From Somniosus microcephalus (Eukaryota), in the NCBI GenBank assembly GCA_052327205.1, contig CM126208.1, forward strand, positions 245,768,001-245,832,000: 64,000 bases of DNA, given 5' to 3'. Below are positions 46,421 through 61,402 of the stretch, piece by piece. The position numbers were made by a program, and so were the translations under genes. How positions within the stretch are numbered: the first letter of the stretch is position 1; every line of letters starts with the position of its first letter. Below the pieces are notes generated by a model, which worked only from the letters and a program-made list of their open reading frames with translations, had not been told where the DNA came from and did not search any database.

Positions 46421-49400
46421 TGTTGTGTATGTACCTTTAAGAGAATAACTGGTCTCAGGCTGCAGTACCGGCAGTGACCACCCCTGTATAAAAGGCGCTA
46501 GAGAGCCTCTGTTGGTTAGTTTCGTTTATGCCTTTCACCAGTAAAGACTTGTTTGTTTCTCTCCTGCTAGTCCGTGTCTCAATCATTCACGGACTTAACA
46601 CTGGCGACAAGTTAGAAACGAACTTACCTGCAACTCAGCAGCAGCTCCGACGACGTGTTGAAGGTCGGAGCCAGAAGAAAAAAAAAAATAGGCCATTGAA
46701 ACTCGAGAAACGGGCGTCGACCGTCAATCATCGACTTCAAAACTTGCAGGAGAGACTGTCCAGAGCCAGGCTGGGTTCCTCAGTCCATGGTTTCCCAGCT
46801 AATCGGGCTGGTGGCAGGTAGTGCTCTGATCCTTCCTGGGCTGCAACGGGGCCGGGCAGCGAGTCGGGAAGCAAGGAGAGATAGAGAGGGTGGAGCATAC
46901 AGGGCGCGGCCGGTGTTTCGAAGCTGGGCAGCGTTCGGACCTCAGAAGAGGGAGGGAAGTGTTCCAGAGGGTCCGCTCCATGACGGGAAAATAATAAAAG
47001 AAAAAGAATACGCGCAAGAAACCGTGGAAAGCAGCGCTAACAACAGCGGGGAAGAAGGAAAAGCGCGGGAGGCGCCATTTTGTTAAATCGGAGAAGAAGG
47101 CAAAGCGCGGGAGGCGCCATTTTAGATTTGCAAGATGCCGAAGACTGGCTGTATCACTGCTTTTGATAATACAATAGAGGACTGGACCACGTATGTGGAA
47201 AGAGTCGAGGTATATTTCGAGGCAAATGAAATAGCGGAGGGGAAAAAGGCATCAATATTGCTAAACGTAATGGGCGCTAGAATGTGCGGCCTATTGCGGG
47301 ATCTGATTACTCCAGCCAAACCAAAGGCGAAGAGTTTTAACGAAATTGTTGCTGTTCTACAGGAGCACTTAAACCCTGCACCGCTGTTGATAGCAGAAAG
47401 ATTTAAATTCCACAGGAGAACTCAGCACAAAGATGAGAGCAATGCTAAGTATCTTACGGAACTACGCAAGCTATCAAAGCACTGCCAGTTCGGAGCAGGA
47501 CTGGCAGATACCCTACGGGACAAATTTGTCTGTGGACTCCTGAGTGAAGGAACACAGAAGAAGTTACTCTCAGAGAAAGAGCTGACGCTAGATAAGGCTT
47601 TCAGCGTGGCAGTATCGTATGAAGCAGCAGCCAGGGGAGCTGCAGAAATTCAACAAAAACCACAGGAATACGGCACCCACGAAATGACACGGGGATTTGC
47701 AAAATGTTATCGCTGCGGCAGAACTAACCATGACCAGAAGGACTGCTGGTCCAAAGACAAAATATGCAGACAATGCGGGAAGATTGGACACATTGCACAA
47801 GTTTGTAGGTCTGGGAAGAAGACCAGCGACAACAGAAAGGCTACAAAGGAACCGTACAAGAAAGTACATAAGATGAGCGATAGTGAATCCGAGAACAGGA
47901 GATTAAGCTGTCTCAAACTTCACAATGTAATCTCAAAAGAGGATCACCGAACCATTTGGGTCACCCTCACGATAGCAGGGTCCCAAGTTAAAATGGAATT
48001 GGATACAGGATCAGCGCTAACCGTCATGAATCGACGAGACTATGAGCAGCTATTTTCACACATACCCTTGAGAGAGACATCCATCGTCTTGACGACGTAT
48101 ACGGGGCAAAAAGTATACCCCAGGGGAAAAATAAGGGTGCCTGTCGAATACAATGGCAAGAAATTACGGAAATTGTATCTCTACATACTGCCAAATGGTG
48201 GACCACCGTTATTGGGACGGGAATGGGTCAGGAAGATAAACTTAGATTGGCATTCCATTCATGCAATGACGGTGGACGGTAAAAAAGATGAAGACGTCAC
48301 TCCTGGACGATTGTCAACAATCTTAGCTAACGCCAAAGAGGTATTTCAACAAGAACTGGGCACGCTTAAAGGCGTAACCGCCTCGTTAAAAATAGAAGAG
48401 AATGCAGTTCCCAAGTTTTTCAAAGCGAGACCGGTACCATATGCAATTCGTCCAGCCGTCGAGGCAGAGCTGGAGAATCTGGAGAAGGCGGGCGTGTTGT
48501 CTAAGGTCGACTGGAGCGAGTGGGCAACACCCATCGTTCCTGTCATGAAGAAAACATTAAGCAATAAGTCCGGAGAGCCAAGGAAGATTCGCATCTGTGG
48601 GGATTTCAAGGTGACGGTGAACCCTGTCCTTCACACAGTACAATATCCTCTTCCAAGGATAGAAGACATGTTCGCCTCACTGTCTGGAGGGAAGCGTTTT
48701 ACAAAAATTGACCTAGCACAAGCATATTTGCAGATGGAGGTTGAAGAGTCCTCTAGGAAGTATCTCACGATAAACACTCACAAAGGTCTTTACCAGTATC
48801 ATCGATTGGTATTCGCAGTAGCATCGGCTCCGGCGATATGGCAAAGAGCGATGGAACAAGTCCTGCAAGGGATTCCGGGGACTCAGTGTTACTTGGACGA
48901 CATCCTTGTAACAGGTGAAGATGACAGTGAACACCTTAACAACCTAGAACAGGTGCTCACTAGACTACGGGAACATGGGCTGCGAGCCAACCGCCCCAAG
49001 TGCGAATTTTTTAAGAAACAGATATCGTATTGTGGCCACGTGATTGATGAAGAGGGGTTACATAAGTCCCCTGACAAAATTGAAGCGGTTGTTAAGGCCC
49101 CAGCGCCTGAAAATGTGTCGCAACTGAGGTCATTCCTCGGGTTGGTGAATTAAATTAAGTTTTTGCCGAATTTGTCGACAATTCTGCATCCACTGAACGC
49201 CCTGCTATGAACGGGGGTAGCATGGAAATGGAGCGATGATTGTAAACGTGCTTTTCAGAAGAGTAAGGACTTAATCACTTCAAGGGAAGTATTGGCTCAC
49301 TACAACCCAGCACTGCCAATCAGGCTGGCGTGTGATGCGTCTCCCTACGGCATTGGGGCGGTACTGTCACATAAATTCCTTGATGGTTTGGAGAGGCCGA

Positions 49401-51351
49401 TAGCTTTTGCGTCACGCTCGTTAACTTCTGCCGAGCGTAACTACGCCCAGATTGACAGAGAGGCCCTCACCCTAGTGTGGGGGGTGAAGAAGTTCAATCA
49501 CTATCTGCACGGTCAAAAATTTACTCTACTAACCGATCATCAACCTCTTGTCTCCATTTTCAACCCTCAGAAGGGCGTACCGATAATGACAACACAACGG
49601 CTGCAGAGATGGTCCCTTTTCCTAGGGGCACACCAATATGACATCGAGTACAGGGGAACTAAACAGCATGGAAATGCTGATGGATTGTCACGTCTACCGT
49701 TGCCGACGGTGGAAGAAGGAAACCTTGCAGTGGATCCAATGGAGTTATTCCACTCGACCATAGTCGAATGTCTCCCTGTGACGAATGCAAACATAGAAAA
49801 GGAAACACGGAATGACCCGACACTATCACGGGTCTATGATTTAACGGTGAAGTGATGGCCAGCACATGGCGAACCACTGCTGCCAGCATTTTCGCCAAGA
49901 AGAGAACAGCTGTCAGCGTGCAGAGGAACCTTGATGTGTGGATCCAGAGTAGTAATTCCACCTAAGTTGACGGATAGAGTGCTCAATGAGCTTCATGAGG
50001 GTCATCTGGGTGGGGTAAAAATGAAAAGCTTAGCCAGAGCGTTTGTGTGGTGGCCGGGAATCGATAGAGAAATCGAAGAGATGACCAAGAGCTGAGCAGG
50101 ATGCCAGAAGGTCCAAAACGCCCCACCACAAGCTCCTCTGCATCCATGAGAGTGGCCCTCATCTCCATGGCAAAGGGTGCACATTGATTTTGCTGCTCCC
50201 TTCATGGACTCGATGTTTTTAATTGCGGTGGATGCACATTCAAAGTGGCCAGAGGTAATAAAAATGTCCTCAACCACCACGGAAAAAACTATCACAGTTT
50301 TACGAACCATATTCGCCAGGAATGGGCTGCCTGAACAGATTTGCTCTGACAATGGACCACAGTTTGTGTCTGAAGAGTTCCGGAGGTTCTTAAAGAACAA
50401 TGGCGTTAAGCATTACACATCTGCCCCATATCATCCAGCCACTAATGGATTGGCCGAGAGGTTTGTCCAAACATTCAAGAAGGCTATCAAGGCAATGTGT
50501 AATGAAGATATACCCCTACAACACAAGGTGGACAACTTTTTGTTTGCCTACCGGAATGCGACACATGCGGTTACCAACCAAACTCCAGCCATGATGTTCT
50601 TCAATCGAAGACTACGATGCCGCTTGGATTTGGTTTAGCCAAACGTCCAAAGAGATGTGGAGAACAGGCAGTTTCAGAATATGAATGAAAGGCCGACCAG
50701 GAGTTTTAAGATAGGTCAACCAGTTTTGGCCCGGGACTACCGCACTGAGAAATGGCAGCCAGGAACGATTTGTACACGACAAGGACCTCTCATGTATACC
50801 GTGGACGTTGGGGAGAGCATTGTAAGACGCCATGCTGACCAGATTCTAGAGTCACTGGAAAACGTCAACTCCACACCACGATCTGATACACCTGGTAATG
50901 AAATCGACGTTCCAATTGCAGCTACCGCAGAACCGGTAATATTGCACGCAGATGAACCAAACAACGACATTGATTCCGACTCAACATTGCCAGAAGAACC
51001 TAATACTCCAAAGAGGCGTTATCCAGACAGAATCAGGAAGCCTCCTCAAAGACTGAACTTATAATTGCTTAAACTTAACCAATGTATCTAGCAACAGTAA
51101 TTGTGATTGTAATTCGTTATCATTAGTTGTTAAATGAATGTTATGTACTGTTTATCTAAAAGGGGAGGAATTGTTGTGTATGTACCTTTAAGAGAATAAC
51201 TGGTCTCAGACTGCAGTACCGGCAGTGACCACCTCTGTATAAAAGGCGCTAGAGAGCCTCTGTTGGTTAGTTTCGTTTATGCCTTTCACCAGTAAAGAGT
51301 TGTTTGTTTCTCTCCTGCTAGTCCGTGTCTCAATCATTCACGGACTTAACA
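46421..51351 (+). mobile_element. Full-length Ty3/Gypsy (Mag-like) LTR retrotransposon
   Basis: 180-bp LTRs at 46421-46600 and 51172-51351 (3 differences). 5-bp TSD GACAC. PBS TGGCGAC. PPT aaaaggggagga. Confidence 0.96.
47135..51064 (+). pseudogene. Single-frame gag-pol (2x CCHC, protease LDTGS, RT YLDD, RNaseH CDAS, integrase HIDFA/SDNG/ERF) with several premature stops
   Basis: ORF pieces 47135-49153, 49292-49855, 50177-50638 and 50657-51064 are all in the same frame, separated by stop codons. Ends RRYPDRIRKPPQRLNL*. Confidence 0.93.
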
Positions 51352-55390: not shown

Positions 55391-56103
55391 CCACCCTGAA
55401 ACCTGCTGGAAACTTGGTGGATCCTGTCCCTCCTCTCCACCATACAGGTGCAAATCCCAATTTAAGCCTTGCCCCAACCCCAAGAATTTCAGGGTCTGGG
55501 AAGGAGCGAGATGCATTCTAGTGATCACTGATCTTTCAGTCTGAAACCAACTTAGGAAAATTGGTGCAGTTTTATTGTGGCTTTTTTAATTGTGATTCCC
55601 AATCATTTTTGCACATATCAAATCAATACACCTTTTACTAAATTATAAATGTTCTGATTTTTGACGTGATTGAGTAGTCTGCTTCTACACCCCACCTCCC
55701 CCTCACCCCACATCCTTATCTAGCAATAGCAGAGACCCATTCATACCGGAAGACAGAGCAAATCACGATAGGGTAGATACTCTGATGTGAATACTCTCTT
55801 CAGTTCCCACTCTGAGAATTCTGTCACCAGTGCCACTGACCTCATTTTTCACTTGCTGGAGAGAAGGCTTCACTGAGACTGCTACTCTCAGACTTCTGGT
55901 GTGTAAAAATCGTTTAAACTACGTAATTTTCCATCTGGAAAATTTTACGGGTTATTTAACGTTCAGTTCTTCTCAATAGCTAATGTGACCATGTTTCATT
56001 CTCATTGAAGAGCCATAGGCCTAGAAATTCAGTTGCTTGCGCCACCAGTTTGTGCCCAAAGAGGCCACTCAGAGGCTTTAGCGCCTCTGGCCACAACCAC
56101 CGC

Positions 56104-59100
56104 TGTTAAGTATGTGTATTGTATTGAACAATTAACACAAAGACTTAAACGTATAACTCAAACAGGTCTTTACTGGTTGGAGGTAGGGACTATACTGAAT
56201 ACAAGATTACTGCACAGTGCTTATATACCGGTGTGTTCACCCCCGGTATTACGTCTACAGCAGCCTGAGAAAGTAGTACATCTCTTAAGGTGGAACAGGC
56301 TTAAGCTCTCTTAAGGTGGAACAGGTTACATACACAACACTCCTCCCTTCTTAGCTTTATAGTCATCCCCCCATTTAACATAACGTAATAACATATATAC
56401 ATATATAACTTCATGTTTAACGTAACATATCACAGATTCAGTCTCTGCGGAAAACAGTTCACAGATTCAATCTCTACGAACAGTTGCAACATACTCTTAG
56501 TGGGAACAGTTTACAGGTTCAGTCTCTGTGGGAACAGTTCGTAAATTCAGTCTCTGATCTTAATTCGTTCCAGACAGCATCTTTTCGTAGTGTTCGGCCG
56601 GAGGTAGTAGAAGTAACAATATTTTAAACAATTATTATTTTCGGCCTCTTCTTTTTCTTTTCTGCCTTTTTACAACTCTTGTCGTTCCCATCTTCTCGGC
56701 GGACAGCTGTAATGCTACCAACTCTCTATGTTCTTTAGACCTTAAGTGCTTCCTCCGGATTTCAACACTTTGGGAGTTTCCATCACAATTTGGGCATACC
56801 ACATCCTCGTAGTATTCACTATCACTCAACAGGTCGAGAGGCCCTTCTACTTCTTCCTTACCCAACTGGACGCTATCCGACTGCTGTTCCTTCTCTATCT
56901 CTCTTACTTCCCGTAGTAGAGCCACCTTCTTCCGATGTTCCGTAGACTTTTGGTGCTCCTCCATGATTTCTGCACTTTGGGGGTCGAAGTTACAAGCTGG
57001 GCAGGACAGGACATCGTAATATTCGGAGTCGTCCGACAGGTCATGGTAATATTCGGTGTCGTCCTGAGCTAGGCCAGCGAGAGGGTCGTCTATTTCCTCC
57101 ATACCCAGCTGGACGTTAGCCAGCTCTTGTTCCAAATCCAGACATCTTTCCTGAAGAGACTTCTTCATGTGTACCTCTGCATCCAGCTTTTTCTGGGCTT
57201 TCAGCAAGTCGTTTACTAGTGACCTCATTTGTGATTTTAATACTTCAACTTCCTTTGGAGATTGATTGCTCGGACTATGCAGTCCCTCTACCGGAGCAGC
57301 TGTTTCAGCGGTCTGTTGTTCTACATTGACGTGAGTCAGCGTACTTTTGGCATCCAATGGCTGCTCTGTTGCAGTCGTTTCAGTCTGTGTCGTCACATCA
57401 GCCATCTCAATGACTTTTGAGAGCTCCGAACCCTTTTCCTTTGAAGATCGCAGCTCGTGTTCAAGTTTTTCCCATTTCAGAGTCTTGTCCCTCAGCATAT
57501 GAAGGAGTTGGCTGACCGTTAACTCTTCTGACACCAGATTATGGCACGCACCTTCAGAACCTGAATCAGCTTTGATTCGTTCGGCCTCCTCGCGCAGATG
57601 GTTGGTGTGCTCCTGCTCCATTTTCTCCATCAGTTGCTTCTGTTGCCTTTCCAGATTCTCCCACTCTGTAACAAAGAACTTTTTTATTTCATTCATCTCT
57701 TGCTCAAAACGGCGAATCATTTGTTCTAATTGCTGTTGTAGTTTGAAATGGAGTTGAGTTCGAGCCCAGTGTCCCTCAAAAATGTGCATATCAGTAGACT
57801 TGACAGACTCAGAATTCTCTGTTAAACTATGTTGTTGTTGCTCAGTGGAATTCTGTGCTGAAACTTTGTCTTTTGCACATGGGTTGGTCTTACCATCATC
57901 AGTTCTAGAGTCTGGGCTGATTATCTGCACCGAGTTCTCACTCTTTATGGCTTTTAGCGAATGCCAGTCCATATTTATGTTTCTAAACCACTCCCGGCCT
58001 AGTAGTGGTGGACCTCCCTCCGGTAGCACATATAAGTCCATTATTTGACTTCCTTCGCCCTTGTTGGCCACTGCAACCTTTATTGTCCCGATGGGGTACA
58101 CTCTCTGCCCCGTGTAGGTTGTCAATATAATCTCCGTATCCTGTAGGGGAATATGTTGGAATAACCTTCTGTAATCTTTCTTATTCATGACCGACAATGC
58201 CGATCCAGTGTCCAATTCCATTTTTACTTGGACTCCTTCTATCTGAAGAGTAACCCAAATTGTCTGGAGGTCTGCACCCTTACCAACGTTGAGTACCCTT
58301 AAGCTAGCCAGTTCAATACTGCTTGCGTCTGAATCGGACTCCTGTTCGGCCACCTTGTGTACCTTTGCGTATTTTCCTTGCGGTGACTTCTTGTTGCTGG
58401 TCTTCTTCCCTGACCTGCATACTCTAGCTATATGTCCAAGCCTACCACAAGTTCTACATTCTTGGTTTTTAAACCAACACTGGTTCTGATCATGCGTTGT
58501 CTTTCCACAACGATAACATTTAACAGAACTCACACCCAATTTGTGTGCACTGAGCTCCAGTGACCGTAGCTGCATTACTGCCATGCCTCTCGCTGCGGCT
58601 TCGTGTGCTGCTGCCATAGTGACCGCCTTCTCAAGCGTCAGCTCATTCTCCTCGAGCAGTCGCTTTTGTGTATCCTGTTTAAATAAACCACACACAAATT
58701 TGTCTCGTAGTGCATCTGTCAGTCCCGTTCGAAACTGGCAATATTTCGCTAATTTACGCAATTCCAGCAAATATTCAGCATTGCTTTCATGCTGTAGCTG
58801 CCTTCTGTCGTAAAATTTAAATCGTTCCGCTAGCATCAGCGGCGTGGGGTTTAGATGATCTTTCAGGACAGTAACAATCTCATCGAACGTCTTATCCGCC
58901 GGTTCATCTGGTGATAACAGGTGTTTCAATTGCCCGTATGTCTTCGCACCCATTAAATTTAATAATGTTAGTGCTTTATCAGCCTCGCGAATTTTATTGG
59001 CCTTACAATAATTTTTAACTCGTTCAACATATATGGCCCAATCTTCGATGTCACTATCAAAGTTGCTAATATTCCCGTGTTTAGGCATTGTAGTACTTTA

Positions 59101-59906
59101 TCAGATTTGCAATTTCTCAGATTTTTTTTTTTTTTACTGCTATCCAAGATGGCGGCTTCCCGCTCTTGCCGTCGTCCTCCGCCCACAAAATGGCGGTTTT
59201 CCCGCGCTTGGCGGTCTTCACCCGTCCCCCGACGCCGTCTCCCTTCAGCCCCGAGTGCGGCCCTTATCTCCGCCGCGATCGATGGCCCGCGCTTTTCACC
59301 GCGGCTCTCGCACCTTCAGTGTCTGCCGACGCTGCGCCTTTCAGCCCGAGTGCGGCCCTTATCAGGGATTTCGATCGATGGCCCGGCTGCGCCTCGCACT
59401 TGAAAGCGGCCCGGCCCTTATCAGTGCTTGCGATCGATGGCCCGGCTGCGTCCCTCACTTCAAAGCGGCCCGGCCCTTATCTGCCGATCGCTATCGCCCT
59501 GTACCTCTCTCTTCCCCAGTCCTGTCTTCTACTCCGGTTCACAAGCTGATGGAGGCTTCAGGGTCCTAATGCCTGTCGCTTCCAGTGGGGTGGTGAGTGG
59601 TGAGGTTTGAAACCTCTCTTCAACCGCCGTGGAATAACTGCCGCAGGGTAAGAACCTGACTCGTCGCCAGTGTTAAGTATGTGTATTGTATTGAACAATT
59701 AACACAAAGACTTAAACGTATAACTCAAACAGGTCTTTACTGGTTGGAGGTAGGGACTATACTGAATACAAGATTACTGCACAGTGCTTATATACCGGTG
59801 TGTTCACCCCCGGTATTACGTCTACAGCAGCCTGAGAAAGTAGTACATCTCTTAAGGTGGAACAGGCTTAAGCTCTCTTAAGGTGGAACAGGTTACATAC
59901 ACAACA
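56104..59906 (-). mobile_element. Young non-autonomous Gypsy LTR element carrying captured host coding fragments
   Basis: Identical 236-bp LTRs at 56104-56339 and 59671-59906. PBS TGGCGACGAG next to the 5' LTR. PPT aagaagggagg next to the 3' LTR. No RT, RNaseH or integrase core. Confidence 0.95.
56635..59088 (-). CDS. Chimeric 817-aa Gag-protease fused to STK10/SLK-like, optineurin-like and 2x DNAJC21-like zinc-finger segments
   Basis: aa 1-380 are colinear with Gag-PR of the 47135 element (two [18 protein letters not shown]). aa 438-507 is a PKK coiled coil. aa 508-656 contains EELTVSQLL...TQTE...MKKSLQERC. aa 659-817 has two CPxC...H...H fingers and a basic tail. Uninterrupted ORF. Confidence 0.9.
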
Positions 59907-61402
59907 CTCGCGATATTTAGCGGGGCGCTAATGGCGGCGTTAGCCTGTAGTGCTGCGCCGCCACCGATTATGTCATCAGTGTGCGCAGCGCCCCGCTACC
60001 GCCCCGAGCGCCATATTAGGTCGCGCCCGCCTCTTCCGCGCCGGCCGCAAATAGCGACCGGTACACAGGGGCCTACCTGTGGCGGTAGTGGGGCGAGTTA
60101 AGGTGGAGGTGCGGCCGACCGCTTTTTCGGCGGCCGCCTGCCCGCACCTCCGTCCCCGGCCTCCTACACCCCCCCCCCCGCGGCATTGCCGGCTGTTTCC
60201 CGAGAGCCCGGCACTTCTCCTTGGTGCCGGGCTCATTTGCCGGCACTCGCGAGCGGGGATCGCGCTGTTGCAGGCACCTCCCCCTTAACAGTGGGCGGAA
60301 GGCCTGCAGTACCATAGCCTGCCGTGCCGCAGCGGGTGGCGCTGCGGCACTTTGCGCGCCGATATTCAGTTTCAGCGCCCCAAGCGGGGCGCCGAAAGCC
60401 TTGTGTAGCGGCCGGCTTCCACTTGGGGCACTGAAACTGAATATCCCGATGGCGCAAGTGGCTCCGCGCGCAGCGGTAATTCCGGCGCCCAGGCGAGCTG
60501 GGCGCCCCAAACTGAATTTTTAGCCCAGAATGAGTTCACTATTGTGATGTTCTGTTCACACTTAGAAGTAATTTCCTCAACACACATACATGCAAACTCA
60601 CACTATGACACTCTTAAGCAAGAATCAGGTCCCTTTAATGGCCACATAACGAATAATGAAGTTCTAGTCTGTTTCCTATTGCAGATATGTCCATTGTTTT
60701 ACGTAAAATGGAAGCGTGTTCAACAAGCTGAACTGTCTGAGAACTGTGCTAAATTTGTGGGATGTAGACATAACACCATCGTGCAGCTGGGGGTGGGAAT
60801 TGGGTGCTCTATGATGTTCTTCTACTTGACCTCCTGAGTGTAAACACTGAACTACATGCAAAAGTAACACTATGTATACACACAGATGGTTGCATTGAAC
60901 TTTGAAGCTTGGATTACGGGGTGGTCAAGTATATATTTTAAAAAATGGCCAAAGACTGGAAATCTGAAAAGAAAAAGATGCTGGCATCACGGAGCTAGGC
61001 CCATCAGTAAAAATGCAATTTCCAGCAATTTCTGTGGTTGTTATGCTAACTGGAGCTTGTCACTACAATCAAAAGGATTGGAATTCTGGGTTATTTAAAG
61101 CCTCAGTTATATAGCCACTTTCATGTCTATGCAAAGTCACTTCAGCCATGCAGCAAAGCTCTGGAGTCAAGCACTGATAGGACTCTGAAGCACAATAGAA
61201 CTGGAGCAATATGAGACCATCTGGGCTTGGGCTAGACTCCGTGTGAAACCCAGTTTTAAAAGTGCTCAGGAAGTCCACTGGACCTCTTGGGCACTTTACA
61301 AACTTACGGCAGAACCATTTTTAAGGTTATGGGAAAGTGGATATTCCTGCCCGCGCTCTCCTAACATTAGAAAAAGTGCTGTGGCAACAGGACTCTCTCC
61401 TA

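Follow-up and report, generated by a model that had tools for sequence, protein, structure and literature searches.

Acutely transforming retroviruses are helper-dependent and carry gag-host fusions that arose by template switching. Several LTR retrotransposons with host sequence or reduced coding capacity have also been described. In passages of PMC5131818 and PMC13317346 maize Bs1 is presented as an LTR element that unites parts of three host genes in one transcribed open reading frame (ORF) and has been re-mobilised, and in passages of PMC5131818 animal LTR-mediated retrocopies hold spliced partial mRNA in place of the internal ORFs, with microsimilarity at the switch points, multi-gene chimeras, secondary retroposition and, for some, low KA/KS. 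The mouse circRFWD2 pseudogenes display a non-colinear exon joint in many copies (33), with LTR flanks and no poly(A) (PMC4897178, which leaves open the route by which circular RNA, circRNA, is written back into genomes), and plant TR-GAG elements, in passages of PMC8704663, combine LTRs with a single Gag ORF and are mobilised by an autonomous partner. It is in these features that the element reported here can be compared with them.

Analysis of the window, the whole 64,000-nt stretch of shark DNA under study (on G000:C7 of a 6.4-Gb assembly), established that its minus strand harbours a 3,803-bp element at 56104-59906 which is a young non-autonomous Gypsy whose Gag-protease is in frame with host-derived cargo. 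As the initial annotation had reported, the 236-bp LTRs (5′ LTR, 59671-59906; 3′ LTR, 56104-56339) are 100% identical, and both the primer-binding site adjoining the 5′ LTR (59659-59670), the core of which is common to the autonomous parents P1 and P2, and the polypurine tract (56340-56349) were located in the expected places; the LTR termini are TG...CA. A GC-rich leader with 59-nt tandem units (59089-59658, by repeat analysis) is followed by a single ORF of 817 aa (59088-56635, minus strand), which specifies Gag with two CCHC knuckles (aa 1-235; 58384-59088; by Pfam) and an aspartic protease with an intact DTG motif (aa 279-369; 57982-58254), the latter matching PF13975 and PF13650, neither of which reaches the curated cut-off. 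The claim that this ORF lacks RT, RNase H and integrase was upheld, as Pfam detected none of the three in the 817 aa and approximately 440 aa of host sequence stand there instead; no env domain was found in the element or its parent, and the STK10 kinase domain is absent from the captured part. The target-site duplication of the window copy is imperfect (GCGAG vs GCGGT), and a 5-bp duplication is present in all eight close sister copies and in 14 of 20 further copies. The element is enclosed by a GC-rich repeat with inverted ends (56018-56043 and 60501-60526, 77% complementary), which is probably a MITE. The plus strand of the window also holds a full-length Gypsy relative (46421-51351) with 180-nt repeats that are 98% identical and a Gag-PR-RT ORF at 47135-49150; at the DNA level it is 65% identical to the Gag-PR of the element, and it served as outgroup.

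A single-copy or misassembled locus, which had been named as an outcome that would undermine the earlier reading, was not what was found: a 24-mer at the element's 3′ junction has 177 exact matches in the genome (control 0), and the best 40 DNA matches of the element are each 100%. Among the best 108 protein matches, 88 have an open frame of at least 819 aa, and of 20 3′-junction matches taken from beyond the best-match list 12 retain the full ORF and two have an H-type backbone (see below). The family of the window copy is young and has recently been amplified. Three copies (L209, L213 and L217) combine the window-type ORF with a different U3 part of the LTR, representing a further LTR exchange.

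The nearest named proteins to cargo residues 381-817 are those of sharks. The cargo starts with two pieces of a large STK10 exon (aa 381-439; 57773-57946) that are separated by a 69-nt deletion and are 90-94% identical to the host exon at G000:C8:167.19 Mb; past a 417-nt deletion there follows an STK10 coiled-coil piece (aa 439-508; 57566-57772), recognised by Pfam, protein and host-exon matches, with a host exon joint near 57691. The Pfam PKK match (E 3.6e-12) and shark STK10 as best match (75-82%) confirm the identity that had been given to aa 438-507, and the extent is corrected to three pieces starting at about aa 381. Optineurin pieces with deletions of 258 nt and 21 nt come next (aa 505-666; 57092-57574, by protein and host-exon matches), the best match being shark optineurin (70%; host gene at G000:C17:85.88 Mb), and host exon joints lie near 57434, 57262 and 57146, so that the window copy carries four host exon joints in total. 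Here too the proposed source of aa 508-656 was correct and its boundaries were not, as the optineurin sequence comprises aa 519-666 preceded by a short piece, aa 505-519.

The STK10 sequence missing from the window copy was used as a query and was found at 98 places, most of them intronless, of which nine were fetched (family A). These consist of Gag-protease plus STK10, with 97-100% identity to the host exons in the three mapped copies, and their STK10 order is permuted: it begins within exon b, passes through exons c, d and e, and continues with exon a and the start of b. The e-to-a joint corresponds exactly to a host GT donor and AG acceptor, and is a non-colinear joint of the back-splice type; a 20-mer across it has 899 exact matches in the genome (control 0). 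The five exons sum to 1,245 nt, or 415 stop-free codons, and the distance from junction to junction is 1,245 nt in eight of the nine copies and 1,239 nt in the other. A single host STK10 site agrees with the parent at two points, over 11 nt in the protease-RT linker and at 7 of 8 positions in the integrase tail, a fit to the parent that 10 of 415 circle sites achieved in a chance check. As this one site fits both parent ends, the polymerase would have gone in and out at the same place, one unit apart. The host STK10 exons are single-copy and colinear across 30 kb, at a locus without exon duplication. From this signature in the sequence, the founding capture was likely a single complete round of an STK10 circular RNA. 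Comparison of the 11.5 kb upstream of the circle exons with the 12 kb downstream revealed no inverted repeats, and a pattern search for an empty intermediate with RT-IN deleted returned 0 matches. The window copy is a descendant and not itself a high-confidence circRNA-derived case, as it has no back-splice junction and an optineurin insertion stands in its place. One locus (L048) shows a GC donor at the host STK10 intron after exon c, and a sister family (L138, L139) has three Ig (I-set) domains, presumably obscurin-like, in frame inside the STK10 circle.

Family B shows how this replacement is built: a 417-nt deletion is present and six spliced optineurin exons, with five joints, replace the back-splice joint, the insertion being flanked by microhomology of approximately 9 and 13 nt. 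In the host optineurin exons (L052) two extra single bases in runs break the frame in the assembly; these are probably sequencing errors, and some frameshifts in element copies may be likewise.

The origin of the C-terminal part was less direct to trace, since aa 650-817 of the window copy gave no match in a direct database search; a PDB sequence search with the cargo gave no match, and an atlas search with the fingers of the window copy yielded leads under 0.9 only. A Pfam search of the genome for the finger scored 150 places, 30 of which were fetched, and 29 of these 30 are elements of the same group, assigned to families D (circle plus finger), F (STK10, optineurin and finger) and E, which adds CGNL1 (six host exons, 92% to a shark protein). 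The fingers of sister copies pass PF12171 and are 96-98% identical to a host exon at G000:C1:4.79 Mb, vs 81% for the window copy. In that host gene two exons match the finger piece at 91-98%, and a second, C-terminal C2H2 finger exon lies downstream. The finger piece ahead of the intron is 89 nt in all three copies; the boundary of human c.895-983 falls, we assume, inside the DNAJC21 finger. Variants in passages of PMC9023866 imply that c.895-983 is a human DNAJC21 exon of 89 nt, and DNAJC21 has two C2H2 fingers according to passages of PMC6710477. The source of the finger is thus very probably DNAJC21, an assignment that these matches support well. It stops short of proof because the upstream exons and J domain were not found in the assembly: nothing of either was found in 207 kb upstream of the host locus, where a gap lies at about 0.9 kb, and the atlas gave leads only. 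A genome search with PF21884 found one locus, on C17 only, which we take to be DNAJC2. Of the three source genes proposed in the initial annotation, STK10 and optineurin hold by search and DNAJC21 very probably does, having been traced only through less diverged sister copies. Moreover, the stretch that had been assigned to a single DNAJC21 finger (aa 659-817) contains two CCHH fingers within aa 667-817, and only the first of these, with its acidic lead-in (aa 666-734; 56888-57091), is DNAJC21-like, as seen via the sister copies.

The second CCHH finger and the basic C-terminal tail (aa 734-817; 56635-56887) are 73-83% identical to copies of lineage H (3,423 pattern matches) and, on this similarity, were likely taken from that diverged lineage. 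Simple tandem duplication of the first finger was ruled out, the second being at a dS of about 1 from it. Further coiled-coil pieces, presumably EVI5-like and ankyrin-repeat-protein-like, are carried by the H-lineage copies L193, L197-L200, L207 and L220, two of which have the two-finger end of the window copy and open ORFs of 955 and 1,086 aa. In another set (L099-L110, L148, L154) the 3′ joint from finger to STK10 appears out of frame; some of these families end there in a basic tail and others are reframed by three different deletions.

Post hoc inspection of the later captures revealed that the optineurin, DNAJC21-like and CGNL1 pieces all start no more than about 12 nt from a host exon 3′ end; the optineurin piece exits near an exon start (base 9), CGNL1 exits mid-exon, and the DNAJC21 piece apparently equals three whole exons. 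Back-splice junction patterns for optineurin and DNAJC21 gave 0 matches each in the genome, so that circles are not established for these two. From the exon-end pattern it could tentatively be suggested, with more doubt than conviction, that the optineurin and DNAJC21 pieces were further single turns, that circRNAs have repeatedly supplied in-frame blocks of a new accessory protein, and that an advantageous finger-plus-basic-tail has hopped between backbones and come to outnumber the autonomous parents.

Autonomous relatives of these elements are present in the genome. Parents of type P1 are among them: six of 10 inspected matches run on into RT, one of the six being P2, and one locus (L136) encodes PR-RT-RNaseH-IN in one full ORF of 1,353 aa. 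An autonomous element with the exact protease end or Gag-PR of the window copy was not found, both matches being damaged cargo copies. The LTR of the window copy is 85-90% identical to the LTRs of P2 vs 73-78% for P1, and family G has the window copy's backbone with one finger. In trees built from single copies (L109 left out), C, the family of the window copy, and G group with P2 by Gag-PR (support 100/100), and the topology test rejects a clade of C, G and F (p-AU 4e-45); in the optineurin tree C and G fall among F-type copies. This conflict indicates that the cargo moved from one vehicle to another. At least 40 copies of P2 stand at 99%, with LTR pairs of 98-99.5%, and this abundance and near-identity make it the likely helper that mobilises the window family in trans. 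A parent-type locus (L135) combines three tandem LTRs with two integrase tails that differ from each other. The building order is A (circle on P1), deletion, D (finger), B and F (optineurin), G (P2 backbone) and finally C (window copy, second finger). We hold this capture history, taken as a whole, with high confidence. The proposal that spliced host RNAs were captured one after another through template switching is borne out by the host exon joints and junction microhomologies; the circRNA signature, the backbone change and the radiation with further captured genes had been missed.

Modest purifying selection on the translated cargo is evident from sequence comparison, in line with the earlier suggestion that the chimeric ORF has been maintained. 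Over 275 STK10 and optineurin codons compared with the host, dS is 0.25 and dN 0.08, a ratio of 0.33 where the method's neutral expectation is about 0.7; on codons at which the host agrees with the early families the ratio is 0.33 (0.20-0.54), and it is the same for changes common to the window copy and G (E101 rows, misaligned with CGNL1, were left out). Under a neutral model with the observed 12-type spectrum and stops forbidden, 36.5 synonymous changes were seen in the cargo vs 24.3 expected (P=0.002; STK10 0.004, optineurin 0.05) and 48 replacements vs 59.5 expected; an H copy gave P=0.036. Untranslated STK10 remnants past the stop, which constitute a built-in neutral control, show no synonymous excess in any of seven G and H copies (frameshifting gaps in six, stops in five), these copies being related and thus not independent tests. 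The corresponding dN/dS values are 0.12-0.17 for the protease and 0.15-0.19 for Gag (0.15 vs P1, 0.19 vs P2), the cargo standing at about twice Gag. The lengths of the four deletions measured are all divisible by 3, and both fingers retain CCHH, as is the case in 10 of 10 copies not picked for the finger. The first finger has 19.75 replacement vs 2.25 silent changes with all four ligands kept, the silent changes being below expectation at P=0.028 in one of several tests. The last 15 aa contain 8-10 K/R in seven cargo proteins (10 in the window copy) vs 5 in two parents and family A. Replacements in the cargo are no more conservative than under neutrality, and predicted helical and other parts have dN/dS of 0.31 and 0.38, respectively.

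The reading that we favour, at a probability of roughly 0.6, is that the cargo is a selected protein that would serve the element. Under this reading host RNA would have been co-packaged with element RNA and joined to it by template switching inside the particle, and the cargo would have been founded when reverse transcriptase copied an STK10 circRNA for one turn, the polymerase leaving after that turn as RNase H had destroyed the template. Consumption of a circular template by RNase H would explain entry and exit at one site, one unit apart. P2 would mobilise the element in trans and the element's own protease would release the cargo. As the parental Gag-Pol is one ORF, every Gag would bear a C-terminal load, and the cargo may represent an acidic helical substitute for RT-integrase with a zinc finger and basic tail at its end. 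We infer that it assists particle assembly, binds RNA or promotes nuclear entry, to the benefit of the element's own RNA. The cargo contains an acidic segment (net -34) and its finger is of a Pfam dsRNA-binding type; a single-sequence AlphaFold model (pLDDT 60.6, pTM 0.28) has long helices only and carries no weight as evidence for a fold. PMC3291649 reports that a dimerising zipper placed after HIV-1 protease raises protease activity and lowers particle yield, and by analogy a coiled coil following the protease could matter for its activity, which we regard as a lead only. As to expression, RNA run X18 of organism B gave 11,960 reads in the internal region and run X19 gave 9,720; the reads are not assignable to the locus, and many come from sister families. 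The X18 reads are mostly biased to the element sense strand (at about 20:1 where cargo coverage is deepest and at 4-6:1 in the 3′ bins specific to the copy), X19 is without clear strand bias, and contigs of organisms A and C contain pieces identical to the window copy.

One competing account accepts the capture history and regards the cargo as filler, selection acting only on translation to near the 3′ end (decay avoidance) and on polyprotein solubility, with no specific job for the sequence. Sister families swap the cargo middle for CGNL1, Ig domains or other coiled coils, and such free exchange implies that no single host function is required; this interchangeability, the unconservative replacements in helical and other parts alike and the elevated dN/dS relative to Gag all fit filler. 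We nevertheless consider it unlikely, if worth serious attention, as the synonymous excess persists under a model in which stops are already forbidden, the zinc ligands persist though about half of the finger residues change, the more basic tail was reached by two routes, and G, H and C tolerate an untranslated 3′ remnant behind the finger. Still less probable is that the cargo diverts host defence as a decoy, for example by blocking autophagy through optineurin or signalling through STK10, with the fast first finger reflecting an arms race. The captured pieces are indeed coiled-coil segments of host proteins and the finger's shortage of silent changes points that way, but that test spans 33 codons with an interval that takes in 1, the optineurin stretch deleted in the window copy presumably includes the LC3-binding motif, the ubiquitin-binding end was never present, and families without optineurin are also numerous.

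The founding event itself might be derived from a linear source, namely an mRNA with trans-spliced or repeated exons, or a template jump from one linear mRNA to another. A back-splice-type joint cannot by itself separate a circle from trans-splicing, and other routes are noted in PMC4897178 as well. We nonetheless judge a linear source very improbable, as it accounts poorly for an insert exactly one unit long with a single site of entry and exit, a joint exact at the splice sites, and a host locus free of exon duplication. The reading we retain is a selected cargo that was probably founded on one turn of a circRNA.

Preservation of the parent, of the two switch points and of the precise length of one turn offers a testable mechanism for circRNA write-back, and the families document, step by step, how host fragments were put together into a new protein that selection then maintained in a transposon lineage. 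In practical terms, the 899 genomic copies of the back-splice junction would give false circRNA calls in this species. A search of mostly open-access literature turned up no paper that describes this shark family or the capture of a circRNA within an LTR-element ORF, and the main text of PMC5131818 contains no word starting with 'circ'. The single ingredients are known from Bs1, LTR retrocopies and circRFWD2; the papers searched contain no counterpart to their combination, its scale, the preserved series and the measured constraint. The two features listed by Tan 2016, spliced host sequence and microsimilarity at switch points, are both present here. In contrast to acutely transforming retroviruses, there is no env and no catalytic oncogene domain, amplification is in the germ line and several host genes are involved. 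The plant TR-GAG elements carry no host cargo in the passages of PMC8704663, whereas here the ORF continues via the protease into approximately 440 aa of host sequence. The retrocopies appear as low-copy loci in the passages of PMC5131818, and Bs1 is put at 1-5 copies in passages of its sources; this shark genome instead has a radiation of transposing families with hundreds to thousands of copies in a vertebrate, to which a circle-type founding, retained intermediates, a backbone swap and measured constraint are added. Finally, the circRFWD2 copies are pseudogenes whose mechanism was called mysterious (PMC4897178), whereas in the present case the parent element is available along with the two switch points and a frame that is open and under selection.
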